From IMG/VR virus record IMGVR_UViG_3300049982_000330, positions 1-56,357 of that record: a DNA stretch of 56,357 bases. The stretch is one strand, 5' to 3'. This document shows positions 27,791 to 43,865 of this stretch, piece by piece. The notes under the pieces were generated by a model. The model did no database searches and had not been told where the DNA came from. It worked only from the letters and a program-made list of their open reading frames with translations. The DNA comes from a virus (Duplodnaviria; Caudoviricetes). Made by a program: the position numbers and the translations under genes. Position 1 is the first letter of the stretch; each line of letters begins with the position of its first letter.

Positions 27791-27809
27791 CGGGCCGCCC
27801 TCCCTCTTA

Positions 27810-27949: not shown

Positions 27950-28297
27950 ATGTCCAACCCAATCACATGCCCGACTTGGTGCGAGCGCGAGCACCCCACC
28001 AGCTACCTCGCCCATGAGCGCTACGTCGCCGAGCTCAACGCCGACGGCGGCGAGCTCGTCATCGAGGTCACCGTGAATCAGCACGTGCAGCCCGGCCGTG
28101 TCGACGCGCCCGTCATGCGCCTGTTCGCCCACCAGGGCGGCGACCACGGAGAGACCACGATCCTGGACTTGGCCGCCGACCAGGCCGCCACCCTCGGCCG
28201 GATCATCGCGCTGCTGGCGTCGCACGGCCCGGGGCACCGGTTCGGCGTGGCCCTGACCGACGCCGCCGCGGTGATCCTCGCGGGCGGTGGGCGGTGA
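27950..28297 (+). CDS. CPxWC-motif protein (DUF6907-like)
   Basis: TCPTWCEREH...H and DLAADQAATLG pattern. Confidence 0.65.
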   Translation: MSNPITCPTWCEREHPTSYLAHERYVAELNADGGELVIEVTVNQHVQPGRVDAPVMRLFAHQGGDHGETTILDLAADQAATLGRIIALLASHGPGHRFGVALTDAAAVILAGGGR

Positions 28298-28536
28298 AGG
28301 CCGAGCGCCGACCGGCCGCCACGGTCACGATCAGCGTCGAGGACCTCGACCGGCTGACGGCGGCAGCTACCACGCTGTTCGGCATCGCCAGCGAGCTCCG
28401 CATCCGCTGGGAGAACGCCGAGATCCAGGCCGGGGGCGTCCCGGACGGCATCAATCCCGCATGGGTCGCGCAGAAGCGCGCCGCCGACGGCGACCAGCTG
28501 GCCGCCCGCCGGGCCTCGAAGGGTGGCGTGCGATGA
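28294..28536 (+). CDS. Hypothetical protein
   Basis: Stop/start coupling on both sides. Confidence 0.6.
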   Translation: MKAERRPAATVTISVEDLDRLTAAATTLFGIASELRIRWENAEIQAGGVPDGINPAWVAQKRAADGDQLAARRASKGGVR

Positions 28537-28697
28537 CCACGGCCGAAGAGATCGCGTTCGTCGACGCCATGACGGCCGACGAGCTGCGCCAGGCGCTGAT
28601 GCACCTGGCCGGGTACTCACCCGACGGGTTCGCCGACGCCATCGCCAAGGTCCAGCGTGACCGCGCCTGGCGTGCCGAGATCGAGGTGTCGAAGTGA
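28533..28697 (+). CDS. Small hypothetical protein
   Basis: ATGA coupling; MTTAEEIAFVDAM... Confidence 0.55.
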   Translation: MTTAEEIAFVDAMTADELRQALMHLAGYSPDGFADAIAKVQRDRAWRAEIEVSK

Positions 28698-29464
28698 AGG
28701 GGGCCCGTGCGATCCGCTGGTCGACGGCGGCCGTCGTGGTGGCGCTCGCGGCCGTCGCCGCCGTGGTGTCCTACCGGCACGCCCTGGAGGTGATCCGCGC
28801 CCACGGCGAGAGCGGGTTCACCGCCTACCTGGTGCCGCTCACGGTCGACGGCCTGATCTACGCGTCATCCATGGTGCTGCTCGACGCCTCCCGGCGCGGC
28901 GTCCGTGTGCCGCCTCTGGCGCGGTGGACGCTCGCTCTCGGCATCGTGGCCACCCTCGCCGCCAACGTGGCTCACGGGCTCGCTCACGGCGTCGTCGGGG
29001 CGGTCGTGGCCGCGTGGCCCGCCGCCGCGTTGGTGCTGTCGTATGAACTGCTGATGGCGCTGATCCGGGGTGCGGCCGTACGGGCGACTGTCCAGAATTG
29101 GACAGTCGAGGCGGTAGCCGCACCCGTGGCCCGGGTGCCGGTGAGTCGCGAGGTGTACGACTGGGCAGCCGAGCGGGACCTGTTCGACTCCGTCGCGGCC
29201 GATGCACCCGGCGCTGTACCCGCCGACGGGCCGCCCGCCGTGGACGTACCCGGCGATGCACCCGAGGCCGACCCCGATCCCGAGTGCGCACCCGGCGACG
29301 TACCCGAGCGCGATCCGCTGTACCCGGAGGCCGTTCGCTTGTACCTCGGCGACGTCGCGAGCGGCGCCGTCCCGCCGCTGCGAGCCATCAAGGCCGACCT
29401 CGGTATAGGCCAAACCAAGGCGCAACAGGTGCAGGGCTATCTACGGACGCTCGCCGCGAGCTGA
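28694..29464 (+). CDS. DUF2637-like membrane protein with C-terminal HTH
   Basis: AAVVSYRH, PLTVDGLI, TLAANVAH, VAAWPAAAL; C-terminal PPLRAIKADLGIGQTKAQQV. Confidence 0.8.
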   Translation: MKGARAIRWSTAAVVVALAAVAAVVSYRHALEVIRAHGESGFTAYLVPLTVDGLIYASSMVLLDASRRGVRVPPLARWTLALGIVATLAANVAHGLAHGVVGAVVAAWPAAALVLSYELLMALIRGAAVRATVQNWTVEAVAAPVARVPVSREVYDWAAERDLFDSVAADAPGAVPADGPPAVDVPGDAPEADPDPECAPGDVPERDPLYPEAVRLYLGDVASGAVPPLRAIKADLGIGQTKAQQVQGYLRTLAAS

Positions 29465-29473
29465 ACGAGTCGA

Positions 29474-29511
29474 GCAGAATGCCCCGCCGGTCGACCGGCG
29501 GGGCATTCTGC
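29474..29511. terminator. Perfect 38-bp palindrome / terminator
   Basis: GCAGAATGCCCCGCCGGTCGACCGGCGGGGCATTCTGC. Confidence 0.75.
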
Positions 29512-29539
29512 GTTCCGGGGTAAGGAGTCTTCAAGGCTC

Positions 29540-29594
29540 TTGACAGCACTCCGGAGGAGGCTGACGATGCGCTGGTCCGAGAAATCTCCGGAAA
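29540..29594 (+). promoter_or_regulatory. Putative promoter and operator
   Basis: TTGACA-N17-GACGAT followed by AGAAATCTCCGGAAA, a motif repeated at 31195. Confidence 0.55.
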
Positions 29595-29616
29595 CACTCA
29601 GGAGAGGGAAAGATCG

Positions 29617-29832
29617 ATGCGCCTACAGTTCCTTGGCAAGGAAACCGACGGCGGTAACTCCCCTACGCTGTGGGACACCGACGGCGACGAGTACGTGATC
29701 CAGGGCTTTACGGTGACCGACGCCGAGGCCCTCGCGGACATCGGCGCCGTTCCTGATGGGGAGCTGATAATCCGCATCCCCAAGCGCCTGATGGACCACC
29801 TGCCGAAGGAGACACATGGACCTGCTGACTAA
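29617..29832 (+). CDS. Small protein of the DUF6879/XRE cassette
   Basis: MRLQFLGK...SPTLW...YVIQG pattern; RBS. Confidence 0.8.
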   Translation: MRLQFLGKETDGGNSPTLWDTDGDEYVIQGFTVTDAEALADIGAVPDGELIIRIPKRLMDHLPKETHGPAD

Positions 29833-30343
29833 GGAGGAATTCCAGCAGAGATTCCACGGGTCGAAGCGGGCCTTCCACCTCGAACTACGGGACGCCTACA
29901 ACGTCACCGCCGAGGATGAGCCGTTCCGGAAGTGGCAGGCCGGCGAGTACGACGACCACGCGTGGCGGCGCCCGTGGCAGGCATTCATTCGCCAGGTGAC
30001 AGGCGCCGGCTGCGCGATGCAGCGGGTCAGGGTCGTCACCGTGCCCCATGCGCGCTACACGCGATGGCTGCTCGACATCGCCGGCGACAACGTTGAGGCC
30101 GGGGAGGACATCCGATACCTGCCACGACACCTCGCCGCGGACATCGACTTCCCCCCGGAGGACTGCTGGTTGTTCGATGACGACCAGCTGGTGCTCAGCG
30201 TGTTCCCGGGCGACGGCCGGGCCGGTGCGTTCGTCGCCGAGACCGATCCCGACCTGATACGCAGGTACCTGATCGCCCGCGATCTGGTGTGGGAGCGCGC
30301 GATCCCGCACGCCGTTTATGTTCACGCGCAGCGCCGCGCCTGA
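29816..30343 (+). CDS. DUF6879-like protein
   Basis: AFHLELRDAY, RVRVV, NVEAGEDIRYLPR and DCWLFDD motifs. Confidence 0.85.
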   Translation: MDLLTKEEFQQRFHGSKRAFHLELRDAYNVTAEDEPFRKWQAGEYDDHAWRRPWQAFIRQVTGAGCAMQRVRVVTVPHARYTRWLLDIAGDNVEAGEDIRYLPRHLAADIDFPPEDCWLFDDDQLVLSVFPGDGRAGAFVAETDPDLIRRYLIARDLVWERAIPHAVYVHAQRRA

Positions 30344-30358
30344 TTCGCCGCTTCGACC

Positions 30359-31195
30359 GTGTCACAGCCGACCGACCAGGCCCGCCAGGCGCTAGGTTCC
30401 CGCCTCCGTGAGATGCGCCAGGACGCGCGGCTCACGGGCCGGGAGCTCGCCGCGCGAGCCGGTTGGCGGCCCCCGAAGGTGTCCAAGCTGGAGCACGGGC
30501 AGCAGAACGCCAGCGAGGAGGACATCCGTACCTGGTGCCAGGTGTGCGGCGCGCGGGACCAGATCCCTGAGCTGATCGCCACGGTGCGCGCGATCGAAGC
30601 GCAGTACATGGAATGGCGACGACAGATGCGGGGAGGTCAACGCCGCGTCCAGAGCGTGCTCCGCGCCGAGGATCTCTCCACCCGCCTGTATCGGATCTTC
30701 GAGCCGTTCCACATCCCCGGCTTCCTCCAGACCCGCGATTACACCCGGGTCATCATGGCGCGCAGTGCCCATTTCTACGAGGCACCGAACGACCTGGAAG
30801 CCGCTGTAGCGGCCCGTCTGGGGCGTCAGACCATTCTTCGAATGGGTGACCGCCGGTTCCACATCGTCGTGGCCGAGCAGGCCCTGTACACCCAAGTGGG
30901 CGGCCCTGAGGTGATGCGCGGCCAGCTCGCCCACCTCCTGGACGAGATGGCCGCGCTGCCCCGGCTGCGTCTCGGCGTCGTTCCCCGCGCCGCCGACTAC
31001 GAGCTCGGCCCCCACGCGGGTTACTGGATCTTCGACGCGCGGCTGGTCATGACGGAGACGGTCACGGCCGTTCTGAACGTCACCCAGCCGCGAGAGGTCG
31101 CCATGTATGAGCGGCACTTCGACGGAATAGCGGGCCTCGCGGTGTACGGCCAGGCGGCCGCTGCCCGAATTACGGCAGCGAGCGAAGCTCTCTAA
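30359..31195 (+). CDS. XRE HTH plus DUF5753-type regulator
   Basis: LREMRQDARLTGRELA...VSKLEHG; IPGFLQT.DY; EQAL. Confidence 0.9.
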   Translation: MSQPTDQARQALGSRLREMRQDARLTGRELAARAGWRPPKVSKLEHGQQNASEEDIRTWCQVCGARDQIPELIATVRAIEAQYMEWRRQMRGGQRRVQSVLRAEDLSTRLYRIFEPFHIPGFLQTRDYTRVIMARSAHFYEAPNDLEAAVAARLGRQTILRMGDRRFHIVVAEQALYTQVGGPEVMRGQLAHLLDEMAALPRLRLGVVPRAADYELGPHAGYWIFDARLVMTETVTAVLNVTQPREVAMYERHFDGIAGLAVYGQAAAARITAASEAL

Positions 31196-31321
31196 GAAAT
31201 CTCAGGAAATCTCGTTGAGTGTGACGCGTGTGCCTGCCGACGATCGGGGGGACGAAAGGCGGGCCCGCCTGGCGCTGATGACGACCAGACGAGCCCTTGA
31301 TCGGACGCGGAGGTCCGACCC

Positions 31322-31531
31322 ATGGCACACCTTAAAGCCACCTCAGTGGACGCGCCCCCAGGATGGCGGGTGTTCCGAAGCGATAAGGGCCGCTTCTGGG
31401 CCACCCGCGAGGAGCCCTACCCCGAGCCCGAGCAAACCGCGTGGCGGACCGTGGACGCCGACGACTTGACCACGCTGTGCCGGACCATCGCCGAGCAGGA
31501 GAGCCGAGCCGAGCTGGGAGCGTCATCATGA
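31322..31531 (+). CDS. Small hypothetical protein
   Basis: GGAGG RBS; GWRVFRSDKGRFWATR...RTVDADD. Confidence 0.7.
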   Translation: MAHLKATSVDAPPGWRVFRSDKGRFWATREEPYPEPEQTAWRTVDADDLTTLCRTIAEQESRAELGASS

Positions 31532-31809
31532 GCGAGTCCGATCTCCACGTCGTGGACACCGACCAGATCAGGGAACAGAAGATCGCCGCCCTGGCCCAGA
31601 CCTACCCGGCGTGGCAGATCCGGTTCGTCGGATCCACCATCGCGGGCCCCATGGGCTGGTGGGCCATGCGGCACGCTCCGCTGACCGAGGCCCAGCGCGC
31701 GGCCGGCCTGGTGCCGTCCATCGCCCGCGGCGACATCGTGTCCCTGGTGATGGAACTCGACGTCCAGGATCAGATCGCCCATCGGACCGGCTACGCGGCC
31801 CGCCCATGA
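31528..31809 (+). CDS. Hypothetical protein
   Basis: ATGA coupling; YPAWQI...WWAMR. Confidence 0.65.
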   Translation: MSESDLHVVDTDQIREQKIAALAQTYPAWQIRFVGSTIAGPMGWWAMRHAPLTEAQRAAGLVPSIARGDIVSLVMELDVQDQIAHRTGYAARP

Positions 31810-32159
31810 GCAGGCCCGGCGGTCGTCCCGCTTCCCAGGTGGAACCCGCCGGGCCGCCGCCGTGCCCAGCGTGGTGCGACTTCCAGCACTCCGAGACTGA
31901 GCCGAGCTGGCGCTGGTACTGGCGCACACATCTCGGCATGGGTCGTACGGTGCCGCTGACGGCGATGCCTTCGGTGGCCAGCCACATCCCGATGCTGATG
32001 TACGACCTCATCCAGCAGCCCGACGGCGAGCCGATGATCCGGATGCGCCGCGACGGCCGTCCGCTGGTGCGGCTCACCTCCGGCGAGGCTCAGCGCCTCG
32101 CCATGGGCCTGGTCGCGCTCGTCGACCAGGCCCGCGCGGAGGCCGAGGGCAGGGCATGA
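31806..32159 (+). CDS. Second CPxWC-motif protein
   Basis: CPAWCDFQH...H; LTSGEAQRLA. Confidence 0.6.
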   Translation: MSRPGGRPASQVEPAGPPPCPAWCDFQHSETEPSWRWYWRTHLGMGRTVPLTAMPSVASHIPMLMYDLIQQPDGEPMIRMRRDGRPLVRLTSGEAQRLAMGLVALVDQARAEAEGRA

Positions 32160-32265
32160 GCGCGCATGCCAGCACCCCGGTTCAAGGGACCTGCTCGTCT
32201 CGTGGCGGCCGAACGCTCGGCCCGCATGGACGGCCCCGGGCGCGGCCGGGCCGCCATGGTCGCGG

Positions 32266-32574
32266 TCATGGCGGGGGCGGGCCGTGGTGCTCGGTGAAGA
32301 AGCGGAGCTCCTCCCACGCCTCCGGGTCCAGCGCGGCGGCCTCGTTGAGCACCTCAGCGAGCAGGCGGCGGGGCAGGCCCGACTCTTCCCACACCGCCCC
32401 GCACGAGCACCGTACGTAGCTCGGATCGTCGCCTGTCTCGTCGAGCAGCACCGACACGGTGAGGATGTGCCGCTCACCGCAGGCCGGACAGCCGATGGGG
32501 CCGTTCAGCCCGATGGCCCCGTTCACCAGGTGCAGGGTGACCTGGGTGATCTGGTGTTCTGCGTGCCCGCTCAC
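32266..32574 (-). CDS. Zinc-ribbon protein coupled to the satellite TMP
   Basis: CPACG...CSCG; GTGA overlap. Confidence 0.65.
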   Translation of the reverse strand: MSGHAEHQITQVTLHLVNGAIGLNGPIGCPACGERHILTVSVLLDETGDDPSYVRCSCGAVWEESGLPRRLLAEVLNEAAALDPEAWEELRFFTEHHGPPPP

Positions 32575-35500
32575 CTCGAACCTCGTTCGACTTGGCGCAG
32601 CCCCTCGCGGATCTGCATGAGGATCTCCCGCCCCGCCACGGTGTGGTTCTCGAAGTTGAGCTTGGCCCCGTTGATGTTGAGCACGAAGTCTCCCTGAATG
32701 GTCGGGCCGCCTCCACGGCCGCTACTTGACGAGGTGCTCACGCTGGCGCCGGACACACTCAACGTCGACCCGCCGGAGGTCGCGAGCGCCGGCCCGCCCC
32801 CGCCGGCGAACCCGAACGTCGGTTGTATGTCCATGGTGGCCATGTCGGCCATGCCGCGAACGGCGTCGAGCACGTGCCCGTACCCGCCTTGGATGCCGCT
32901 GGCCAGGCCCATGGGGATGAACTTGCCGATCGCGGCGAACACCTTGGACGGCGAGGCGATGCCGAGGATCTTCTTGGCCCAGTCGGGCAGCAGGGCGCCG
33001 AACAGGTTCCCGATCTGCTGCTTGAACCAGTTCCACATGCCGACGATGCCGTTCCACAGCCCCGTGATCATGTTGTGGCCAAGCGTGCCGAACATGCCGG
33101 CGAGGTCGCCGATCGCGCCGAGGATCAACCCGGGCAAGCCCTTGAGCCAGGTCACCAGGTCGTTGAACTTGCTGATGGCCCAGTCCTTGGCCTTGCCGAA
33201 CCACTCGGCGAACATGGCGGGCAGGCCCGAGATCCACTTGACGATCCCGTTGACCAGGTCGGGAATGATGCTGTGGCCGATCAACGTGTCGTACAACCAG
33301 GTGAACCAGCCGACAATGGTTTTGATCTTGTCGGCGATGTCGGCGGCGAATGTCGTGATGGCCGGGATGACCACCCCAAGGATCACGCCGACGAGCTTCA
33401 CGAACATGATTTGGACCGGCGCCCACAGCCTGATCAACTCGGCGACCATCGGCAGCATCGGCGTCATCGCGGTGATGAGCTGGACGGCGGCGCCTGCCAG
33501 CTGCACCACGACCGGCGCCAACACCTTGATCCACTCGGCCATGACCGGCAGCAGCGCCTTCACGAGCTCACCCACCACCGGCAGGATCGGCGTGAGCGCT
33601 GTGATCAGCGACAGGAACGCGCCGATCAAGCCAGGCAGCAAGGGGGCGAGCTCCTGCAGATACTTCACCAGCGCCAACCCGATGGTTTGCGCGAGCTCCG
33701 ACAGCACCGGCAGCAGCGGCACGACGGCCTGCACCAGCAGCGAGAGCCCGGTCACGAAGTTCGTCGCGATCAATCCGGCGATCTGCGCGATGATCGGGAT
33801 CAGCGGGGTGATAGCCGGGACCAGCCCGGACACCAGTTGGGTGATCAGTGCGGCGATCTGCGGGAGCAACGGTGCGAGCGCCGGAACCAGGGCGTTGATC
33901 AACGTCGCGGCCAAGCCGAAGATCAGCGGCACGATCGGCGACAACGCGACCACGGCCTGCGCAAACGCCCCGACGAGCAGCTGAATCGACGGCAGAATCG
34001 CGATGATCCCCGACGCCAGGCTCGTGGCGATCAGCAGCACCAGCTGGCCGAGCACCGGCAGCAGCGGGGCGAACGCGGGCACCAGCTGGCCGATGACCGT
34101 TGCCGCCAGCCCGATGATCAGCGGGATGATCGGGGCGAGGGCGGTCAGCATCGAGGCGAACCCGCCGACGAGGACCTGAATCGGGCCCAACATCGCCTGC
34201 ATCCCGGCGGCCAGGCTGGAGGCGATCAGCGTGGCCAGCTGGGAGATCACGGGCAGCAGCGGGGACAGGGACTGCAGGATCTCGCCGAAGACGCGGACCA
34301 TCAGCTGGATCGACGGCAGCATCGCCTGTACGCCTGCAGCAAGCGTGGTGGCGATCAAGGCCGCGAGCTGGCCGACCACCGGTAGCAGAGGCGCGATGGC
34401 TGCGAGGATCCCGCCGAGCGCTGCTCCGATCGGGGCGAGCGCCGGCGCGAGCGACGCGAAACCCGTAGCCACCGCGCCGATGAACGCCTGCAAGCCGGGC
34501 AGGATCGCTGCGATGGCGGGACCGATGGCGGCGATCAGGGGCTGCACGGACGCGAAAGCGGCGCCGATGGCCTGACCGAGGGGAAGCATCGCGGGCGCCA
34601 GGGCGGCGACCGCCTGGCCGATGCCGGCGAACACCGCGATCATCCCCGGGCCGATCGCCGCGACGGCGGGACCGAGCGCGGTGATCGCCGTGGCGAGCAC
34701 CGGGCCGACCATTTGAGCCAGCTGTGCGATGACGGGGGCGAGCTGGGCGATGACGCCCACAACGGCGGTGATCACCGGCAGGAACGATTTGGCGATGGCG
34801 CTCAGCGCGGTGAACACCGCGACCAGCGTTGACTGGCCCTGCGCTGATTTGAGGAACTGGTTCATCCCGTCGAGCAGCTGGCCGATGACGCCGAGTGCGC
34901 TCGCGCCAGAGGCCTGCATGGCGGTGAAGACCGACCGCACGATGCCGCCGACGTCGCCGACGATCGAGCCGAGCTGCTTGAAGACCAGCAGGGCGTTGTC
35001 CATCCATTGCAACGCCTGACCGCTCGCCGCGGCGTTGTACATGAACAGGCCGAACCGCTGCGCCACGGCGGCGATCCCGGGCGCCAGGGCGGCCAGCCAT
35101 CCGGCGCCGACCACACCGAGGTCTCTGAAGCCGTTGAGCAGGGGCGTCAGGGCGGGGATGAAGGCGGTCACCGCGTCATGCAGCGAGGTGAACACGCTGC
35201 GGATCGCCCAGATCGACTCCGATGACCGGGCGAATTCGAGGACCTTCAGCGCGGCCTGGCCGAACTGGCCGGCCACGCTCTCCACCCCGTCGGTCAGGGC
35301 GTTGAGGACGGGCAGCAGCGACCACATCTGGCCGACCAGCGGCCCGAACAGGGCATCCTGAGCGGCGAACTTGAGGCCCTGGAAAGCGGGCGCCATTTGG
35401 AAGAGCTCGTACGCCACCTGGCCGGCGGATGCGCCCAGCCCGGCGGCGGCCGTCATGAACTTGTCGAAATCGCCGGAGATGGCGGCCGCGAAAGCGTCCC

Positions 35501-35975
35501 CGACGCCGCTCAATGCGAGCTTCAGGGTGCCCAGCGCGGCGGCGCCGAGCAGTATCCCTCCCGGCAGAGCGGCGAGGATCCCCACAGCGGGCGCCAGCGC
35601 GGACACCAGGCCGATCGCACCTGAGCCGGCCGTGGCCATCGCAGCCGACAGGACGGCCATCTTCGCCGCGGCGGTGACCAGCGAGACGCCCACACTGACC
35701 AGCGAGCCCACGAAGCTCGCGACGTGGGAGGTTGCCTGGGAGACAGCCGTACTCAGGAGGGCGAACACGGCGCCGATGCCGCTGGAGCCACTGCCGAGAC
35801 GGAGGAAGCCCGCGTTCATCGAGCTCGAGATGCCGTCGAGGCTGCGGAAGCTGCGCTCGGTCCTGTCCGCCTGCCGCGCGACCTTCTCCAGGTCTCGGTT
35901 CACCTTGCCAATCCCGCGATCGGTGTCAGCCATCACCCCAAGGCGGATCATGAGGTTCTTGATTGAGTTCGCCAT
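32571..35975 (-). CDS. Tape measure protein (satellite copy, 1134 aa)
   Basis: True start ATG 35975 with AGAAAGGG RBS; collinear with the helper TMP. Confidence 0.93.
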   Translation of the reverse strand: MANSIKNLMIRLGVMADTDRGIGKVNRDLEKVARQADRTERSFRSLDGISSSMNAGFLRLGSGSSGIGAVFALLSTAVSQATSHVASFVGSLVSVGVSLVTAAAKMAVLSAAMATAGSGAIGLVSALAPAVGILAALPGGILLGAAALGTLKLALSGVGDAFAAAISGDFDKFMTAAAGLGASAGQVAYELFQMAPAFQGLKFAAQDALFGPLVGQMWSLLPVLNALTDGVESVAGQFGQAALKVLEFARSSESIWAIRSVFTSLHDAVTAFIPALTPLLNGFRDLGVVGAGWLAALAPGIAAVAQRFGLFMYNAAASGQALQWMDNALLVFKQLGSIVGDVGGIVRSVFTAMQASGASALGVIGQLLDGMNQFLKSAQGQSTLVAVFTALSAIAKSFLPVITAVVGVIAQLAPVIAQLAQMVGPVLATAITALGPAVAAIGPGMIAVFAGIGQAVAALAPAMLPLGQAIGAAFASVQPLIAAIGPAIAAILPGLQAFIGAVATGFASLAPALAPIGAALGGILAAIAPLLPVVGQLAALIATTLAAGVQAMLPSIQLMVRVFGEILQSLSPLLPVISQLATLIASSLAAGMQAMLGPIQVLVGGFASMLTALAPIIPLIIGLAATVIGQLVPAFAPLLPVLGQLVLLIATSLASGIIAILPSIQLLVGAFAQAVVALSPIVPLIFGLAATLINALVPALAPLLPQIAALITQLVSGLVPAITPLIPIIAQIAGLIATNFVTGLSLLVQAVVPLLPVLSELAQTIGLALVKYLQELAPLLPGLIGAFLSLITALTPILPVVGELVKALLPVMAEWIKVLAPVVVQLAGAAVQLITAMTPMLPMVAELIRLWAPVQIMFVKLVGVILGVVIPAITTFAADIADKIKTIVGWFTWLYDTLIGHSIIPDLVNGIVKWISGLPAMFAEWFGKAKDWAISKFNDLVTWLKGLPGLILGAIGDLAGMFGTLGHNMITGLWNGIVGMWNWFKQQIGNLFGALLPDWAKKILGIASPSKVFAAIGKFIPMGLASGIQGGYGHVLDAVRGMADMATMDIQPTFGFAGGGGPALATSGGSTLSVSGASVSTSSSSGRGGGPTIQGDFVLNINGAKLNFENHTVAGREILMQIREGLRQVERGSR
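33775..35642. repeat. About 1.9-kb direct repeat of 10074-11941 (offset 23,701)
   Basis: Identical shadow ORFs at constant offset; scattered substitutions mostly toward the high-coordinate end. Confidence 0.9.
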
Positions 35976-35977
35976 CG

Positions 35978-36223
35978 TCACCCTTTCTCTGGTTCTCGTC
36001 GGGCCACCTGCCGGCTCGCTCGGGCGCACTCCTGCGAGCACGTGCGCCGACGGCGGCCACCCGACCAGGTGGCCTCGAAGGTCTGGCCGCACACCGAGCA
36101 CGTCGCCTCGTGCCGCGCGCGACGGCACGGCCGGCAGACCCGCAACCCGGCGGGCAGCGAGGTGCTGGTCGACCAGAGCAGGACGCCGCACATCGCGCAC
36201 GGGACATCGGGCCGCCGAGCCAT
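35978..36223 (-). CDS. Multi-CxxC zinc-finger protein
   Basis: CAMC, CRPC, CSVC, CSQEC; GGAGG RBS before ATG 36223. Confidence 0.65.
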   Translation of the reverse strand: MARRPDVPCAMCGVLLWSTSTSLPAGLRVCRPCRRARHEATCSVCGQTFEATWSGGRRRRTCSQECARASRQVARREPEKG

Positions 36224-36301
36224 CCCGTCACCTCCCTGTCGCCGACTACGCCGGGTGACCAGCACGCGGTCACTCTGTGCCATCTCTTCGCCCTCACTCT
36301 G

Positions 36302-36436
36302 AGTGATGATCTTGAGGCCGATTACTCTGTGAAGTGGGGAGGGAAAAGGGCGCTAAGGGCGCGGGTCCCCCGTGATCGTTGATCTACGTCGCGAGGGTGC
36401 CCCCTCCGGCGCTATGACCTGCGAAAACGTCGCCGC
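36302..36436. repeat. Satellite copy of the putative cos/packaging site
   Basis: 132/135 identical to 46227-46361, same orientation, non-coding. Confidence 0.85.
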
Positions 36437-36964
36437 ATTGTCGCTGAGGGTCGATTGCATGCTGTTTATATGTTTGATCTTCGTCACTGAGCGTGTTTGG
36501 CGCAGTGTCACGTAACGTCATCACTTACGTCATCGCTTACGTGTTGATCTTCACGTTGTTTGCGTTGTGTGATCGGTGACTGGCTGGCCACCGCGCCATC
36601 CGCACCGCTCGGCCTCGGCTCGCGCGCATCAGCACGACGTGACGCTGTCGCGCCAGGTATGCACAGATGATCACGACTGCGAGACGCGTGAGCAGCGAGC
36701 GTCGAGCGGCGACTGTGGAAGCACGATCGCTGTGACGTACATCGTCGGCTGATGCATCGAGCTGCGTGTGATCGCTGTGTGCGAGCCATGGTGGCTGTGG
36801 TGGATAGGTGGCAGAACCGATGCTGATCAGCTCGGCGGGCGCGGTGTTCGAGCGTGACCGGCAGCGCCTGTGCCGCGTGCGGCTCGGCCGCCAGGAGGAC
36901 AGGGCCCACCGAGTGTGCCGGGCCCCCAAAGGTCGCCACCGCTCATTGGCGAATGGGCCCCGGG

Positions 36965-37495
36965 TCATGCCGTCTCCCGTGCGGCGGCCCGACGCTCGAG
37001 GTGGCACCGCTCCTCAATCCGGATCAGGGTCCGGCGTGCTGCCCCGAGGCGCTCGCCCGCCGCGCTCCGCGCCCTGTAGAGCCGACTCTCCGCAGCTTCC
37101 AGGACGTGACGCCGTGCCTGTGTGGGTTCCCTCGCGGGGTAGTCCGCCGGGGAGAGCATTGCGCCCCTCGGCCCCGTGTTCGCCCCCGCGGCCGTGGCCT
37201 CGATCAGCGCCCGTTGGTGCGCCATATCGGCCATGGTGTAGCTCGCGAGCGCCTCGTCGACGGCCTGCTGCGCCTCGGCTATCTGCGGCGCGAACCGGTC
37301 GATCACCTCCTGCTCGGCCTCGCCGATCGGGTCCGGCGCCGGACCGAGCAGCTTGCTCGGGTCGATGACCAACCCGTCGCGCCAGCAGAACCAGCCCGAG
37401 GGCATCGGGCGGCACCGCTTGGCCCCATATCCGACCGGCCTCCCGCAGCGATGGCACCGCTCGCTCGCGGCCTTGTTCTCGGCTGACAGCCTCAC
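36965..37495 (-). CDS. Hypothetical protein (Cys motif plus helical region)
   Basis: GTGA coupling to the upstream gene. Confidence 0.55.
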   Translation of the reverse strand: MRLSAENKAASERCHRCGRPVGYGAKRCRPMPSGWFCWRDGLVIDPSKLLGPAPDPIGEAEQEVIDRFAPQIAEAQQAVDEALASYTMADMAHQRALIEATAAGANTGPRGAMLSPADYPAREPTQARRHVLEAAESRLYRARSAAGERLGAARRTLIRIEERCHLERRAAARETA

Positions 37496-38496
37496 CTCGT
37501 CGCCTCCAGCCAGTAGGTGGCGCGCGCCATTTCCTCGTAGGCGCGCGCGGCATCCTCGTCGCCGCCGGCCATGTGCCTGACCTCGTGCCCGGTGATCGCG
37601 TCCAGCTCAGCCGCCTGGCACAGCGCGTCGGCGTTCAACCAGACTTCACCCGCCCAGGACACCGCCTTGCCGAGCAGCTGGTCACTCGGCCAGCCGAAGC
37701 CCGGCCGGGCGGACTCGCCGTACATCTCCAGGTAGTCGCGTTCGCCGTCGGTCTCGCTGCGGAACCAGCGCAGCCGAGGCCGCGGGGCGACCTTCAACCG
37801 CTCGCAGTGCTTGGTAAGCGCCGAGTCGACGATGACGCGTTTCCAGGCCGGAACCTCATCCGCCGCGAGTTCGACGTACCAGCTCGACACGTGCCGCTCC
37901 GCTTCCATCAGGACCGTGCGCGCGTGCTCGCGTTCCTCAAGATCCCGAAGGTTCCGCTTCACGATTTCGCAGGTGTTGACGACGGCGAGCCGCTCCATCC
38001 ACGCCCGGGTCTCGGCGTCGAGTTCGCCGGGCGGCCTGTTGTGCTTGACGGCGAGGGTCCGCGTGCCCACGCCAGCCCCGCGAAGGACTGGGCTGACCTC
38101 GAACACCTGTACCTCTTCGATGAAGCGCACCCGCTGGCCGGCGAACTCGCCGAACGACTCCTTGGTCACGTTGTAGCCGTAGCTCCACTCCTGGAGGCCG
38201 CCGAGCTGCTTGACGACGGTGAAGGTGTCGCGACCGGCCATGGTGTCGAGGAAGAACCGGCCTTCCAGGATCGCCTCATTGGCGGTCTGCCGGATGGTGC
38301 CCAGCCCGACCGGAAGCTCGCCGTCCCAGGTCCTGTGGCCGTAGCTGGAAATCACGACGGGCGCACCGTCGGCGAACGCTCCCGGCCGTGTCACATCCCG
38401 ATCGGAGTCGATCGCGTTGAACGTCGAGAAGATGGCCCGCACTTCGCCCTTGGACTCGTCCTTGATCTCCAGCAGGAGACTCTTGGTGTCCACCAT
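37492..38496 (-). CDS. Prohead protease paralog fused to an HEXXH domain
   Basis: First ~150 aa align with the helper protease; C-terminal ITGHEVRHMAG. Confidence 0.85.
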   Translation of the reverse strand: MVDTKSLLLEIKDESKGEVRAIFSTFNAIDSDRDVTRPGAFADGAPVVISSYGHRTWDGELPVGLGTIRQTANEAILEGRFFLDTMAGRDTFTVVKQLGGLQEWSYGYNVTKESFGEFAGQRVRFIEEVQVFEVSPVLRGAGVGTRTLAVKHNRPPGELDAETRAWMERLAVVNTCEIVKRNLRDLEEREHARTVLMEAERHVSSWYVELAADEVPAWKRVIVDSALTKHCERLKVAPRPRLRWFRSETDGERDYLEMYGESARPGFGWPSDQLLGKAVSWAGEVWLNADALCQAAELDAITGHEVRHMAGGDEDAARAYEEMARATYWLEATR

Positions 38497-38886
38497 TCAC
38501 CCCTCCCTTCTGCGCGCGGCCTCGGCCGCGACGGCGTCGCGCTCGAAGACCCACCGGCCCCGCTCCAGGCGTCCGCCGAGTTCGGCGGCGAGCTGGCGCA
38601 CGCGGCGCGCGGTGAGTCCGAGCAGCGCCGCGACCTGATCGGCGCTCAGAGGCGAGGATCGCCCGATTTCCGCGATCGGCGTTTCCGAGCTTCCGTTCGG
38701 CAGGTCAGGGCGTTTCCGCGCCCGTCCGGCTCGCTCCAGGTCACCGATCGCGGCCAGCAGCTCGGCACGCGCGTGCGGCGCCACCCGATCGAAGTAGCCC
38801 TTCCGCGCCAGGTCGCGAAGGGCGACGCCGGCGAGCTGCGCGATCTGCCCGGACAGGACCGCGGCGTCCTGGACGTAGGCCACCAA
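38497..38886 (-). CDS. HTH DNA-binding protein (excisionase/AlpA-like C-terminus)
   Basis: LSADQVAALLGLTARRVRQLA...GRWVF. Confidence 0.75.
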   Translation of the reverse strand: MVAYVQDAAVLSGQIAQLAGVALRDLARKGYFDRVAPHARAELLAAIGDLERAGRARKRPDLPNGSSETPIAEIGRSSPLSADQVAALLGLTARRVRQLAAELGGRLERGRWVFERDAVAAEAARRREG

Positions 38887-38887
38887 C

Positions 38888-39055
38888 TCACCTGCCGTCC
38901 GCGGCTCGGACGGGCCAGCGCTCGCTAAAACAAAGGACGTGCATCCAGTCGCCTCGGGCGCCGATGCGGCAGATCCGTTCCCCGATGTGGATCGCGCGAC
39001 GACACAGCGGACAACGGCTCTCCCTGCGCGCCTTCCGCGCGTGGGTGGCGATCAT
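38888..39055 (-). CDS. Small zinc-finger protein
   Basis: CPLC...IHIGERI...WMHVLC. Confidence 0.6.
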   Translation of the reverse strand: MIATHARKARRESRCPLCRRAIHIGERICRIGARGDWMHVLCFSERWPVRAADGR

Positions 39056-39888
39056 GCCGACCTCGCCATGGCCCGGCACTGCGGGCACTGCGGCAGACCG
39101 GTGTCCGGGCGCGCCTGGTCGCCGCCGGGTGTGCCGTGCTCGCACGGCGGCATCTGACCGATCGAGGCCAACCACACGCCGATGTCGGACCGGCCGCGCG
39201 CCGTACGTACCCGCACGAGCACCGGGGCCAGGTCCCCGTGATGGGCCATGGTGCGCAGGAGGCCGGGAAGCGATCGGACCTTGTTCTCAGCCTCGATCGT
39301 CTTGATGACGCTCTCTGCCTCCTCCTCGGTGGCGCCCGTGGCGGCCGTCACGATCCGTACGGCTCGCGCCCGCGCGGATGAGGAGTTCTTGAGGATCTCT
39401 GAGGAGATGGGTCCCCCGCTTGGGGGAGCTTCAGCACTTGAAGCTCTCCCGCTTGGGGGAGCTTCGGGACCAGGCGGGGGAGCTTCAGCACTCGAAGGTC
39501 TCCCGGATGGGGGAGCTTCAAGCTCTCCCGCTTGGGGGAGCTTCAGCGCCGGGCATTCGCCGGGCCTCGGAATGTAGAACTCCATGGCATGGCCGTTGCA
39601 GGCGAAGAGCATGCGCCCCCGGTCGTCAGTGACCGCCTGGCCCTGCTTGTCGCGGACCGGCACGCGGAGCTCGATGCCGTTCGCTCCGAGTTTGCCCAGC
39701 ACCTTGCCGAGCTGCTTGAGGTCTGCAAAGCCCGTCCGGCGGATCACCGTCGCGATCACCGCTCCGCCGTACGCGCGGCGAGTCCGCTCGTTGGCCTGGT
39801 CGGCGATCTCCAGGGCCACCAGCCGCTCGCCGGAGGACAGGCCAGGCGGCAGATGCTCGGCGAGCCAGCGCCGCAGCTCGTAACCCAT
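39052..39888 (-). CDS. Putative replication initiator
   Basis: LSSGERLVALEIADQAN wHTH-like N-terminus, internal iterons, C-terminal CEH...CPQC; start ATG 39888. Confidence 0.7.
   Translation of the reverse strand: MGYELRRWLAEHLPPGLSSGERLVALEIADQANERTRRAYGGAVIATVIRRTGFADLKQLGKVLGKLGANGIELRVPVRDKQGQAVTDDRGRMLFACNGHAMEFYIPRPGECPALKLPQAGELEAPPSGRPSSAEAPPPGPEAPPSGRASSAEAPPSGGPISSEILKNSSSARARAVRIVTAATGATEEEAESVIKTIEAENKVRSLPGLLRTMAHHGDLAPVLVRVRTARGRSDIGVWLASIGQMPPCEHGTPGGDQARPDTGLPQCPQCRAMARSA
39422..39544. repeat. Five GGGGGAGCTTC direct repeats (putative ori iterons)
   Basis: Copies at 39422, 39455, 39476, 39509 and 39534. Confidence 0.8.
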
Positions 39889-40169
39889 CAGGTCTCGCCG
39901 GCTTCCTGCTCTTCGCGCTCCCGGCGAAGCGCCTCGGCACTGATCTCCACCAGGGCCCGGCGCCGCGGCGAGGTGTTCATCTGGTCGCCGTGCATCGCGG
40001 GCGGCAGTCGGCCGTTCCACATATCCGGCGTACTGAAGAACAGCGGCGCCTGCGTGAGCCGGGCGCGCAGGTCGACGTACGCGAGCACCCGGGCCCGGCG
40101 CGCGGCGCACTCAGCTCGCTCATCGGCAGCGGCCTTCCTCAGCAGCGCTGCCCACTCCTGGCCCTTCAC
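39888..40169 (-). CDS. Hypothetical protein
   Basis: Coupled within the operon. Confidence 0.6.
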   Translation of the reverse strand: MKGQEWAALLRKAAADERAECAARRARVLAYVDLRARLTQAPLFFSTPDMWNGRLPPAMHGDQMNTSPRRRALVEISAEALRREREEQEAGET

Positions 40170-40414
40170 GGCGTCACGCCCGCGAGCGTGCCGCGCTGCC
40201 GGGCGATCTGACCCAGCTCCTCGAGTTGGGTCAAGCGGTCAAGGACGCGTTGCCGATCAGCTGGCCGCAACGACCGCAGCGCGGCGGCAGCAGACCGCCC
40301 ACAGGAGTTTGCCCGCGCTCTGTCGGACCGGCGCTGTACGCTGACACCATCGTCGTTAACGCGTTTCGAGGCCGCTCCTGCCCGGGGGCGGCCTTCGGCG
40401 TTCTCAGGCCACAT
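40166..40414 (-). CDS. Hypothetical protein
   Basis: GGAGG RBS; coupled to the next gene. Confidence 0.45.
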   Translation of the reverse strand: MWPENAEGRPRAGAASKRVNDDGVSVQRRSDRARANSCGRSAAAALRSLRPADRQRVLDRLTQLEELGQIARQRGTLAGVTP

Positions 40415-40646
40415 GGCGCACCTCCCCGCCCGCGTCCTGGTGGCCGAGGAGCACCTGAGCGAGGCGCACGCGTTGCTCGGGAGTCGGACTCGGTTCTGAA
40501 CCGATGAGCCGCTGGATGTAGTCCTCTGCGGCTAGGACCTTGAGGTCCCGGCGCTGGGTTTCAACCAGCTCAAGCCGATCCGGATGATGGCGCCTGGTGG
40601 CTGCGTGCTGTGCCCGTAAGCGGCGGCGCTCAGGAGAAAGAGACAT
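40404..40646 (-). CDS. Putative recombination directionality factor (phiRv1 Rv1584c-like)
   Basis: RRDLKVLAAEDYIQRLIGSEPSPTPEQRVRLAQVLL matches my recollection of the phiRv1 RDF pattern; downstream of the serine integrase. Confidence 0.65.
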   Translation of the reverse strand: MSLSPERRRLRAQHAATRRHHPDRLELVETQRRDLKVLAAEDYIQRLIGSEPSPTPEQRVRLAQVLLGHQDAGGEVRHVA

Positions 40647-40795
40647 GGATCCCCCAGAAGGCAAATGCCTTGTAAGGGGCTCCTCATACGTGGCCGTCTC
40701 GGGAGCCGGTTTCGCGTCGCCGGGTAGACCAGGCCCCACGTAGGCCCCGCGACACGCCCTGCCGTGCACAGGACAGTAGCAAGTCACCCAGGCGT

Positions 40796-41095
40796 TCACA
40801 TGCCATATCGGCTAGGAGGCTGGAGAGATTCAGTCGGACCGTAACTCTCGTCCAGATTGGAATGATCAACACGAGAAAGCCCCGGACCTTGGTCCAGGGC
40901 TTCGTCTCTGCACTGAGCACAATGGCACTGCGGCGGAGGATCGACGGGCAGGCCGGCGGCTATCTTCTGCCGTCGCCGTTCCAGCGCCACGGCGAGCATG
41001 CGCACCGTCCGATGCACCCTCGCCGTCATGCCAGCGGAGTTTTCCTCGGGATCGTGGGTCTCAGACATGGCTGGAAATATCCTTTCCTTGCGCAT
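40796..41095 (-). CDS. Hypothetical protein
   Basis: ORF with CHCAQC; weak support. Confidence 0.35.
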   Translation of the reverse strand: MRKERIFPAMSETHDPEENSAGMTARVHRTVRMLAVALERRRQKIAAGLPVDPPPQCHCAQCRDEALDQGPGLSRVDHSNLDESYGPTESLQPPSRYGM

Positions 41096-41098
41096 AGC

Positions 41099-41131
41099 AA
41101 AGAGCCGCGAGGGATATGCTCGCGGCTCTTT
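41099..41131 (-). terminator. Terminator downstream of the integrase
   Basis: 13-bp stem AAAGAGCCGCGAG/CTCGCGGCTCTTT. Confidence 0.75.
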
Positions 41132-41154
41132 CGCTGGGTTTAGGTGCAGCGCGC

Positions 41155-42849
41155 CTACCGGCGCCAGGTGATTGTCATTCGGTCAGTGTTCGCCGTTGGG
41201 CGACGATTCTTCCCCGGGCCGGGCTCGTACCCCAGTTCTTGGATGGCGGCTCTCACACGCTTCTCCAGTTCGGGTGACTTGGCCTTTCCCAGGATTACCA
41301 GACTGACGAACCCCTGACTGACACCAGCGTGCTCGGCAACGTCCTTCTGCGTCACGCGCTTGGTGGAGTGAAGGGACCGATTCTCGTAGTGGATCGTGAC
41401 CTTTGCGATCCAGTCATCGACGAATTTCCGTTGCTCGTCGAGATGCATCTCCGGCCACAAGGTCCGAAGCTCCTCGGGGTCGATGTCCCCGACCGGTGCA
41501 GGCAGCTCGGCGAGCTCGCGTTCGAACGTCTGAGCCTCCTTCATCAGCCCGTCATTCATGACGTTGAACTGCTCCGTGGTGAGCTTGCGCCCGTTCCACA
41601 TCTGAGCCAGCTCACCGCGCCGAAGGTCGAGGGCATCGAGTTTCTTCACCAGGTCTTCGCGGCGCGCGAAAAAACTGTCCTGTGCGAGCAGTCGGGCGGC
41701 GTTGTACTCCTTCAGCTTCTTGAAAAGGTGAACGGCTACGTGTCCTTCTGCCGCCCTGGCGTCGATGGTCGTCCGGCCACATCCGCCGGTCACCTTCGTG
41801 TCGCAGGCGTAGTAGGCGTAGTCGCCGCTGGGCCGCGCCTGCATTGGCTTGTCACAGACCCCGCAGAACGCCCGGTAACCGGTCAGCAGGTAGGCACGCC
41901 CCGACCTGCGTCGCGTCTTCTTCCGCGAACCGATGACGGCGCACAGCGCCCGCCATGTCACCTCGTCAAGGATGGGGGGCCAAGTCGCTTTACCCACGAT
42001 CTCGCCTCGGTGGACACGCAGCCCGGCAACGCACGGCGCGGTCAGGAAGTCGGCAACGCTCGTGGCAACGAACCGGCCGCCGTGCTTGCCTCGCAGGCCC
42101 CTGCTGTTAAGCCACGCGGCTACGTGCGCCAGGCCCCATCCGTTCAGGATGCGGTTGGCGCACTCCGTGATGATCTCGGCTTCCTCGGGCATGATCTCGG
42201 CGCTCTTGCGTCCCTGCTCATCGAGGACGGCCCGCCCGCCCGCAGGCCGCGGATTGTCGGCCTTCCACTGCCGCATCTCCTGGCCGCGGATCCTGGCCTG
42301 ATGGCGGCGCTCCTGCCACTCCTGGAGGCGGCTCTGCTCCTCCGGAGTCAGGATCACCTGCCGGTAGCCGTAGCCGAGACGGCCAGGCGGGCGCCCCTGT
42401 GAGGCAAGTTCGCTTTTTTTATCGAGGATGCGCTTCCGGAGCTGCTTGACCTCGTGCGCGCCGAGAACCGCATTGATCCCCGCGAAGACGCCGTCAACGT
42501 CGATGACGCCGTTCCGCTTGGTGTGAACCTCCGTGACACCAGCCTGCGCGAGGTCGGCCGCCAAGCTGAACCACTCGACCTCGCGGCGGGTGAGCCGGTT
42601 CTGCTCGACGGACCACAGGTGAGCAGACTCGCCGCGCCGGATCGCGTCCCGCATCTTCTCGAACTCCGGGCGAAAGACATCGTCCTTGGCCGCCGACAAG
42701 TCGTTGTCGGCGAAGACCTTGATCGGCATGTCGGGCCACCGGTCCCCGGCGTACTCGCGGCCCCACTTCTCCTGTGCCTGCACCCCCTCGGCGCGTCCTT
42801 GCTGGTCGGCGCTGATCCGGCAGTAGATGAAGACGTATCCCGTGCTCAT
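41155..42849 (-). CDS. Large serine recombinase (integrase) with LacI-type HTH insert
   Basis: YCRIS catalytic motif, DNDLSA, RPEF, NRLTR; zinc ribbon CGVC...YYAC...C; coiled coil. Confidence 0.95.
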   Translation of the reverse strand: MSTGYVFIYCRISADQQGRAEGVQAQEKWGREYAGDRWPDMPIKVFADNDLSAAKDDVFRPEFEKMRDAIRRGESAHLWSVEQNRLTRREVEWFSLAADLAQAGVTEVHTKRNGVIDVDGVFAGINAVLGAHEVKQLRKRILDKKSELASQGRPPGRLGYGYRQVILTPEEQSRLQEWQERRHQARIRGQEMRQWKADNPRPAGGRAVLDEQGRKSAEIMPEEAEIITECANRILNGWGLAHVAAWLNSRGLRGKHGGRFVATSVADFLTAPCVAGLRVHRGEIVGKATWPPILDEVTWRALCAVIGSRKKTRRRSGRAYLLTGYRAFCGVCDKPMQARPSGDYAYYACDTKVTGGCGRTTIDARAAEGHVAVHLFKKLKEYNAARLLAQDSFFARREDLVKKLDALDLRRGELAQMWNGRKLTTEQFNVMNDGLMKEAQTFERELAELPAPVGDIDPEELRTLWPEMHLDEQRKFVDDWIAKVTIHYENRSLHSTKRVTQKDVAEHAGVSQGFVSLVILGKAKSPELEKRVRAAIQELGYEPGPGKNRRPTANTDRMTITWRR

Positions 42850-43865
42850 AGTTCGGATTGTGGTTTAGGTGGGGTGCAACCGGCGAGCCCTTCGCTGAAG
42901 CCCACGATGACCGCCGGGACACCGGCCGCCGCCGCCATGCGCGTCTCGCCGGCGCCCTGGGTCGCCTTGAAGTCGAGCTGCTGCAGGTCCTTGCCGACGA
43001 CGTTCACATCCGCGCCGCCGCCCAGGTAGAGCGTCTTGTACGCGTTGTCGACGCCCCGGTGCTGCTCGTTCATGACGGCGATGAACCGCTTGAGCATGTC
43101 GGGCGTGACGCTGGCGTCCAGCGACACAACGACCTGCGGCGTCGCGCCGTTCTCGAAGAACGCGCCCTTGTGCTTGGTCGCCGCGAGGTCGGAGGAGATC
43201 TCCCGCAGGATCGGGGTGATCCAGCTCATGCCCCGCCAGTGGCACTCCGGGTCCGGGATGGGCGCGAAGTGCGCCACCTGCGACGGAAGGAGGAACCACT
43301 CCTTCTTCGTCATGGGCGGCGCGTAGAAGTAGCCGAGCACCTCGGCGTCCAGCGCGTGGCCGTACAGCTCCGGCTCGGACTTGGAGCCGCTGACGATCGT
43401 CACCCAGTCGGGCCGGAGCCGGCGCAGGCGGCCGGGCTGACCGGGCACCTTGGCGATGAAGGAGTTGCCCGCCAGGTCGACGTCTTGGATCTTCCTGGCC
43501 AGCAGGTCACCGGTGGTGCCGTTCGGCCACGGCCGCTCGAGCAAAGCGAGGTCCTTGTTGCCGAACAGGTCACCCGGGCGGCCGTTCTTGATCCGCCGGA
43601 ACTGGAAGCGGGCCTCGGAGAAGACGAGCATCCGGGTCGCCATCAGCGCGAAGATGGGGCCGTTGGACTTCGCGATGCCCTGGACGTAGCCCTCGAAGTC
43701 GTTCTCGATCTGCTCGCGCTCACCGTTCAGCGACGTCGAGCCGAGGAACGGGAAGCGCAGCCGATCGAGATCCCAGAAGTCTGGCTCCGACCAACCCTTC
43801 TGCGGATTCCGGGCAGGCTTACGCCCGCCACGGTGCGCCGCCGTGACCCGCTCGATCAGGCCCAT
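42846..43865 (-). pseudogene. Portal protein, 5' fragment (HK97-type)
   Basis: LLERPWPN, LAGN, LRPDWV, GMSW, FFENGATP and AAAAGVP motifs; follows terL. Confidence 0.92.
42850..42900. other. att junction at the portal 5' side (core CGG 42880-42882, minus strand)
   Basis: Portal-like sequence ends at ...GFSEGLAG, followed by 10 unrelated codons and a TGA overlapping the integrase ATG. Confidence 0.8.

Follow-up and report, generated by a model that had tools for sequence, protein, structure and literature searches.

Organization of the locus and of the integrase

The stretch analysed here (the window; 56,357 nucleotides, positions 1 to 56,357 of IMG/VR record IMGVR_UViG_3300049982_000330) is a provirus record whose own late genes lie in canonical order and whose portal gene is split by an inserted element of 15.6 kb. 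At the end of the element that adjoins the N-terminal part of the portal gene lies the gene for a 564-amino-acid large serine recombinase (the integrase), which carries a LacI-type helix-turn-helix (HTH) headpiece inside its C-terminal region. The coordinates of the features are collected in Table 1.

The open reading frame (ORF) of the integrase was matched by the PHROG 95 integrase profile (E 2e-68), and Pfam profiles located the catalytic (resolvase) domain, the recombinase domain (RD; DNA-binding domain 1, DBD1) and the core of the zinc-ribbon domain (ZD; DBD2). The catalytic residues R60, R85 and R88 were invariant, and R11 and S13 at least 90% conserved, among 117 sequences; the zinc-ribbon residues C329, C332 and C349 were invariant in a 24-sequence alignment, and C357 was invariant within the clade described below. 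The AlphaFold2 (AF2) model, computed with the 117 sequences, reached a predicted local distance difference test value (pLDDT) of 92.1 and a predicted template modelling score (pTM) of 0.81, and its best Foldseek matches were PhiC31, Bxb1, other serine integrases and LI integrase (4kis), with E values from 1e-15 to 1e-8; sequence identity to GenBank phage integrases was about 25-28%. The predicted coiled coil agrees with the architecture described for LI integrase in excerpts of the published report (PMC3783163). The protein is a complete large serine recombinase with catalytic, recombinase and zinc-ribbon domains, to which the model adds a predicted coiled coil and final hairpin. Catalysis of recombination between the attachment (att) sites attP and attB would be expected from family membership, all the sequence and fold features tested having been found.

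Two inserts interrupt this plan. Insert 1 is the charged segment that an earlier reading of the DNA, made from the letters alone (the sequence-only reading), had noticed after GYGY; the alignment confirmed it at residues 164-208 or thereabouts, and it was modelled as helices 169-187 and 192-198. In the 24-sequence alignment it was present in the proteins P0001-P0018 and missing from P0019 and from the short relatives (P numbers denote proteins, and L numbers loci).

A LacI-type headpiece in the last hairpin of the zinc-ribbon domain

Insert 2 contains the peptide (residues 498-543) that the sequence-only reading had taken for a LacI-type HTH, and this identification was upheld by profile and sequence searches. 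The Pfam LacI profile (PF00356) matched over profile positions 3-45 of 46 with 33.2 bits against a curated cut-off of 27 (E 4.4e-8), and NCBIfam models of the LacI family (MalI, LacI, GntR-type and RbsR) matched residues 495-545 with only their N-terminal positions, about 50 in number. The sole PDB sequence match of the whole protein was a LacI-family regulator (5ysz_A; query residues 495-559, E 0.0028). By BLASTP, the C-terminal 81 residues were 60% identical to residues 1-53 of P0121 (E 6e-16) and 55% identical to residues 1-60 of P0122 (E 4e-15), both of which are genuine LacI regulators carrying PF00532/PF13377, and a region search with residues 470-564 returned, among 30 candidates, the protein itself, four members of its clade and three genuine LacI regulators. 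Given these Pfam, NCBIfam, PDB and LacI-regulator matches, the identity of the HTH is far beyond chance.

The site of insertion was read from the 24-sequence alignment. In the short relatives (about 480 residues), a strand of the form "...V.V" passes into the terminal strand "..RV.I.WR" through a turn of 7-10 residues; at that turn the window protein and 15 other aligned proteins have some 70 extra residues. Insert 2 follows the strand that ends in VTIH and precedes DRMTITWRR, the terminal strand, so that its proposed position between IAKVTIH and DRMTITWRR, within 41155-41400, was correct. The AF2 model has strand 481-486, helices 501-508, 512-519 and 526-539, and strand 558-562, with low confidence in the linkers (pLDDT 61 for block 491-500 and 66 for block 541-550), and the insert is net basic as counted from its sequence. 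The headpiece thus occupies the turn of the beta-hairpin with which the zinc-ribbon domain ends, on flexible linkers of about 14 and 17 residues. According to excerpts of the LI integrase report (PMC3783163), the ZD sheet of that enzyme is extended by a beta13-beta14 hairpin at the end of the domain.

Two defining features of LacI regulators are missing. In place of the hinge helix the protein has PGPGKNRRP, modelled as coil, where 5ysz has PNRAARTL, and the effector and dimerisation core (PF00532/PF13377) was not found in the protein by a Pfam scan at E<=1, the insert being only about 70 residues long. For these two reasons the integrase is no LacI-family regulator, although it does contain a LacI headpiece, internal rather than N-terminal.

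Distribution and origin of the headpiece

A word-based search gave 123 relatives, of which the top 19 (43-100% identity, 524-662 residues) were of the long form; all 19 are metagenome-only protein clusters, none with an NCBI or UniRef name. PF00356 was found in every one of them by direct scan at E<=0.01 (precomputed annotation listed it for 12 of the 19 and for none of P0020-P0120). In a FastTree phylogeny, from which columns of less than 60% occupancy, and with them both inserts, had been removed, the 19 long forms were monophyletic with a support of 0.997. P0019, the first branch of the clade, has the headpiece and no insert 1, which indicates that the headpiece was gained first and insert 1 later. 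The insertion of the headpiece was a single event in the ancestor of the clade, and every member has kept it.

Searches of larger collections recovered few further examples. A phmmer search of 1.84 billion cluster representatives yielded 215 matches at E<=1e-30, and the best 150 of these contained only five full-length long forms, together with the C-terminal fragment P0192 and the likely N-terminal fragment P0124; no LacI match was present in 21 other relatives of at least 520 residues. In 401 sampled genomes, drawn from the class to which a host of the related provirus belongs, the long form was absent, and relatives (E<=1e-30) occurred in two, both short. Scanning of genome_contigs gave five loci, all of short form or cut off; the best 80 loci from viral_contigs contained no long form; and in the contig scans as a whole, including the best 80 loci from metagenome_contigs, the only long-form loci were L088 (full length, with 42 bp upstream) and L108 (a C-terminal fragment). 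L100, although matched over residues 6-560, was rejected as a long form by eye, its C-terminal insert being of low complexity and without a headpiece. This headpiece-less integrase ends an element of about 11 kb (L100 1-394 and 11424-11736) that splits a host gene, judged by eye from the translations to be epimerase/fucose-synthase-like.

A common and dispensable fusion would have told against the sequence-only reading; the fusion was seen in 19 metagenome clusters, 19/19 keep the headpiece, and none of the 401 sampled genomes has it. The fusion of headpiece and integrase is rare, old and retained; it is neither common nor decaying. The same data bear on the simplest explanation of the insert, namely that it is a tolerated passenger, captured by chance in a permissive loop and without a role in recombination. 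Its predicted position in a hairpin turn on flexible linkers would suit a passenger, and related integrases work without a headpiece, as is implied by short forms integrated in genes (e.g. L100). However, retention by all 19 members despite divergence to 43% identity, with the fold core conserved, makes a passenger highly improbable, and P0015 and P0017, in which an insert of about 90 residues is nested within the headpiece, have kept the flanking helices.

The nested insert of P0015 and P0017 follows the second helix of the headpiece, matches no Pfam family and leaves the helices on either side intact.

Integration site in the portal gene

The att sites, which the sequence-only reading had expected at this locus, were defined exactly, with GG cores in a phage portal gene. 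The portal N-terminal part is 50% identical to residues 9-327 of the portal protein of Rhodococcus phage Shagrat, and in the truncated ORF (42846..43865) PF04860 covers only profile positions 35-241 of 321; among 69 GenBank phage matches to the truncated portal, similarity ends by residue 331 of 339 in all 15 listed. The missing part was found by tblastn on the same strand 15.6 kb away, where 27259..26921 matches Shagrat portal residues 322-434 (52% identity, E 5e-29). Six close portal relatives, among them an 84%-identical IMG/VR contig and a Streptosporangium jomthongense genome, are uninterrupted (411-470 residues from the start of the match) and read VGFSEGL.GSSLNAGNY across the site. When the two parts were joined by their coordinates, an open frame of 469 codons resulted, the closest relative having 470 residues, and precise excision would be expected to restore a portal protein of 469 residues.

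The junctions read ...GGGCTCGCC-GG-TTGCACC... and ...GGACTTGAC-GG-CAGCTCG..., and since GG is shared by both, the crossover was placed in the GG at 42880-42881 and 27249-27250; GG was preferred to CG as the core by reasoning only, CG being palindromic. The ATG of the integrase overlaps the stop codon of the truncated portal frame (ATGA), 30 nucleotides (nt) from the core. The integrase is the recombinase of the 15.6 kb element, which it placed in the conserved GFSEGLAG/SSLNAGN coding stretch of the portal gene.

Logan contigs from one soil run bridge both junctions without error, with a depth of about 24 inside and outside the element; this run is probably the source sample of the window, and so is not independent support. 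A 27250-42880 joint was absent from the 15 listed of 57 Logan joints (three soil runs), which is uninformative on excision since contigs drop rare variants; no RNA data set was listed as containing the sequence. Exact searches with the 35-nt P' arm gave no match in viral_contigs and none in genome_contigs, and a motif script detected no other insertion at the portal site among 93 portal loci, 25 of which had no match to the motif. A literature search, with supplements outside its scope, did not find a published serine-recombinase element in a portal gene.

Some portal loci were irregular in other ways. L199 has a frameshift in the stretch of the insertion site, and in the IMG/VR portal loci L242 and L255 the frames run about 540 residues past the conserved SEGL motif, L242 departing from the portal consensus directly after ATYS; fusion, an intein or a frameshift could account for these long frames.

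Function of the headpiece

The anatomy of the integrase and its att sites are solid, and the role of the headpiece is what we infer; the sequence-only reading had proposed either regulation of transcription or extra DNA targeting. In the 19 members of the clade, the fold-core residues V504, A505, A508, G509, V515, V518, V532, A535, L539, G540 and Y541 were 79-100% conserved (V504, A505, G509, V515, A535 and G540 at 95-100%), and the exposed positions 512-514, 516, 517 and 520 of the second helix had entropies above 2 bits. With the core fixed and the recognition positions variable, an extra tethered DNA-binding module is the most likely role. Accordingly favoured, at about an even chance, is a headpiece that acts in cis as a third reader of DNA sequence beside the two standard DNA-binding domains.

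In LI integrase, positions 16-24 of the attP half-site are read from within the major groove by beta11-beta12 of the same sheet, as stated in excerpts of the report (PMC3783163). Being tethered beside this reader of the outer 9 bp, the headpiece would most plausibly contact DNA immediately beyond the normal att half-site, or else an arm-like site close by, where the extra contact could add specificity or help to distinguish the types of site. A recognition face that changes from element to element is as expected of elements with different att sites, and the P' arm of L088 is unlike that of the window integrase.

Several observations weigh against this assignment. No target of the headpiece was found in the att arms: the four half-arms, compared with either GG or CG as the core, agreed at 10-18 of 48 positions, and the best symmetry, between P and P' (18/48), was weak. 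The motif ACTnTnAnC at +28 to +36, spotted by eye as a possible headpiece site, was not significant. Only one complete pair of junctions is available for the clade. The window protein and its four closest relatives have Leu517, where 11 of the 19 members have Arg or His, and the window protein has Leu520, where 15 of the 19 have a polar or basic residue; because of these two leucines the canonical contacts may be weakened in this copy. LacI headpieces usually bind as dimers held by the core domain, which is absent here, and the loss of the hinge helix described above points the same way.

The headpiece might also read DNA away from the crossover, as an operator-binding regulatory module through which the integrase would also repress its own gene or others of the element. 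To our knowledge, LacI headpieces read operators in every characterised family member. The att P' arm covers the integrase start codon, so that integrase bound there could limit its own expression, but no palindromic or repeated operator-like motif was identified, no dedicated motif search having been made beyond the att arms. Recognition positions that differ between elements would suit an operator peculiar to each; on the other hand, the headpiece comes without a dimerising core or hinge helix, and the element already has a separate regulator of the XRE type (HTH_31 with DUF5753). Such a regulatory role is considered unlikely.

A sequence-reading module at the att site, the role favoured above, would have practical consequences. 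Large serine integrases are the leading tools for inserting large DNA payloads, and their site recognition has so far been attributed to two DNA-binding domains; a conserved third module, if true, would offer a new route to specificity or regulation and a handle for re-targeting. A literature search, with supplements and database architecture listings outside its scope, did not find a published serine integrase with a LacI-type or a third DNA-binding domain. For genome engineering, a use already suggested by the sequence-only reading, the enzyme is a candidate recombinase.

The 99-amino-acid neighbour as candidate directionality factor

The protein of 99 amino acids encoded next to the integrase matched no Pfam or PHROG family. 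A homologue (62% identity over residues 26-68) adjoins the long-form integrase of L088, itself 51% identical to the window integrase, and was the only one among 167 integrase loci; the recurring core is RTVR.LA.AL.RRR.KIAAG..VDPPPQC.C..C. A complex predicted for integrase residues 310-564 with this protein scored 0.74, against 0.00 for the best of three controls, a mark that 58 of 80 solved complexes attain, as do 2 of 110 mismatched pairs. At least 62% of contacts agreed between runs, with a pLDDT of 61 for the partner, and the predicted contacts lie on integrase residues 368-388, 453-480 and 555-564, that is, on the helices flanking the coiled coil and on the C-terminal strand. The recombination directionality factor (RDF) of SPbeta binds the same integrase surface, as described in excerpts of a preprint (bioRxiv 10.1101/2025.01.03.631226).

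The prediction is tempered by how it was made: the integrase was given a custom 19-row alignment and the partner a single sequence, the score is the model's own confidence, and likeness to the solved integrase-RDF complexes that exist could contribute to it. From the predicted complex, we infer binding of the neighbour at the coiled-coil base and at the C-terminus of the integrase, which makes it a candidate directionality factor for excision.

The predicted interface gives some ground for a headpiece that reads no DNA and acts as a protein module, tuning directionality through the coiled-coil hinge or through binding of the directionality factor. In the integrase of SPbeta, the surface of DBD2 around helices J and M, together with the extreme C-terminus, makes up the RDF pocket and serves as a directionality "toggle", according to excerpts of the same preprint (bioRxiv 10.1101/2025.01.03.631226), and it is because the hairpin adjoins this region, as far as the excerpts describe it, that such a role is plausible. 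The predicted contacts of the candidate partner include residues 555-564, beside the insert, yet residues 498-543 were not among the confident ones, residues that are not named there being uncertain. Likewise, the recognition helix of the window protein (FVSLVIL) is unusually hydrophobic, whereas Arg or His occupies the key recognition position in most of the clade, and a fixed core with a variable recognition face suits DNA reading better than a fixed protein interface. A headpiece without contact to DNA is accordingly rated quite unlikely, below a regulatory one, and the sequence-reading module remains the favoured assignment.

Comparison with known systems

The integrase shares with those of PhiC31, Bxb1, SPbeta and Listeria LI/A118 the catalytic domain, the recombinase domain, the zinc ribbon with coiled coil and the final hairpin; as in other large serine integrases, the att site adjoins the gene and a small partner would sit at the base of the coiled coil, here by prediction. 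Unlike them, it has the headpiece in the final hairpin and a 45-residue helical insert in the first hairpin of the recombinase domain, and its element targets a phage portal gene. With the LacI/GalR regulators (PDB 5ysz, P0121 and P0122) it has in common the three-helix headpiece, 55-60% identical to the first 53-60 residues of P0121 and P0122, but the regulators differ in having a hinge helix and a periplasmic-binding-protein-like core, and in the window protein the headpiece is internal.

Extra HTH modules have been gained elsewhere in the family. P0211, a serine integrase of 34% identity and one of the 21 long relatives without a LacI match, has a C-terminal extension with three HTH repeats (HTH_7, 52 bits). 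Here too the additional modules follow the zinc-ribbon domain; however, they are HTH_7/homeodomain-like repeats, not of LacI type, and are appended after an intact terminal hairpin. P0211 is an independent gain. Small serine recombinases (resolvases and invertases) and IS607-type transposases also combine the catalytic domain with a simple site-reading HTH, but in these the HTH is the only DNA-binding domain, whereas here it is additional to two standard ones. In function, the nearest analogues are these small recombinases, P0211 and, by analogy only, the arm-binding domain of lambda-type tyrosine integrases.

Elements that interrupt coding genes offer a further parallel. SPbeta is inserted in spsM. 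The skin element is inserted in sigK, as given in excerpts of the report (PMC5025042). In both, as in the window, a coding gene is divided by an element with a large serine recombinase, and precise excision would restore the frame of the gene; the window differs in that the interrupted gene is the portal of another prophage, not a host gene, and in that the truncated portal frame ends on the integrase start codon (ATGA).

Other contents of the element and relation to the outer provirus

The outer late genes encode an HNH endonuclease, large terminase, portal (split), protease, major head protein, head-tail adaptor, major tail protein, tail assembly chaperone, tape measure protein and minor tail protein. 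The genes of the element include those for the integrase, the 99-residue protein, DUF6907, DUF2637, DUF6879 and the XRE-type protein (HTH_31+DUF5753), of which DUF2637, DUF6879 and the XRE-type protein are actinobacterial; another element protein had a weak HTH_17 match (E 0.0026) below the cut-off. No terminase, portal or capsid match was obtained among the element ORFs scanned.

Three features are shared between the element and the outer provirus. A second prohead-protease-like gene (37492-38496) encodes a protein 55% identical to the outer protease (25731-27053) over its first 184 residues, with an unrelated C-terminal half. Two tape-measure genes, at 32571-36227 in the element and 8843-12283 in the outer provirus, are 76% identical overall and almost entirely so in a central stretch, within which a Logan contig (33966-34646) is covered at about double depth (43.6), as a true two-copy repeat would be; the near-identical centres suggest recent gene conversion between the nested elements. 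Finally, 194 bp within the element (36294-36487) have 88% identity to 46219-46411, a stretch which lies immediately upstream of the outer terminase gene and contains no convincing ORF, and which, by analogy with phage satellites, may be a shared packaging signal.

These features fit, without proving, a satellite-like element of phage origin. Expression of its integrase would accompany that of the late operon of the helper, and its excision would repair the portal gene; an element placed in the portal gene of another prophage, at one of the stretches that are most conserved there, and able to restore the gene suggests parasitism or regulation of phage by phage. A single scheme may be drawn in which an integrase with three DNA readers and tripartite half-sites serves a phage-parasitic element in the portal gene of a helper prophage, with excision triggered by the helper and followed by packaging. 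Each half-site would then consist of a recombinase-domain motif, a zinc-ribbon motif and an outer headpiece motif, the att sites would be longer and more specific than in any characterised serine integrase, and the recognition helix would be swappable like that of a LacI regulator. The integrase would be translationally coupled to the truncated portal frame, so that late transcription of the helper would lead to excision with the 99-residue partner and to restoration of the portal, and the excised element's copy of the region upstream of the terminase would allow its packaging. Taken as one, this scheme is unlikely.

Table 1. Features of the inserted element, its integrase and the flanking portal gene, with positions in the window
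Feature	Position	Strand	Evidence
Inserted element body, 15,631 bp including one core copy	27251..42879		Portal split, uninterrupted relatives
Portal N-part/element junction (attL-type), core GG 42880-42881	42855..42906	-	Portal similarity ends; relatives uninterrupted
Element/portal C-part junction (attR-type), core GG 27249-27250	27224..27275	-	tblastn, sequence
Portal gene N-terminal part, outer provirus	42882..43865	-	PF04860, E 4.7e-29
Portal gene C-terminal part, outer provirus	26825..27248	-	52% identity, Shagrat portal
Large serine recombinase (integrase) coding sequence, 564 amino acids	41155..42849	-	Pfam, PHROG, AF2, Foldseek
Catalytic (resolvase) domain, residues 6-153	42391..42834	-	PF00239, E 1.1e-13
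Insert 1, charged helical, residues ~164-208, after GYGYRQ, in first beta-hairpin of recombinase domain	42226..42360	-	Alignment, AF2
Recombinase domain (RD/DBD1), residues 221-305	41935..42189	-	PF07508, E 3.7e-12
Zinc-ribbon core of ZD/DBD2 (Zn_ribbon_recom), residues 327-372	41734..41871	-	PF13408, 29.3 bits, cut-off 25.3
Predicted antiparallel coiled coil, helices 394-419 and 425-448	41506..41670	-	AF2 secondary structure
Insert 2, residues 487-557: N-linker, three-helix LacI-type headpiece, basic Pro/Gly-rich C-linker	41179..41391	-	Alignment, AF2
Pfam LacI (PF00356) match, residues 502-543	41221..41346	-	E 4.4e-8, 33.2 bits
Stem-loop directly after integrase stop (possible terminator)	41096..41154	-	-28.7 kcal/mol, z -4.9
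Conserved 99-amino-acid protein, candidate recombination directionality factor	40796..41095	-	L088 homologue, complex prediction

Consensus promoter and terminator scans round the integrase and the left junction gave nothing relevant and did not list the stem-loop at 41096..41154, for which none of 200 shuffled sequences (0/200) folded as well. A second strong stem-loop, with a stem of 15 bp (27325-27385; -30.4 kcal/mol, z -3.7), lies about 85-120 bp inside the left end of the element and would be upstream of the integrase in the circular form.

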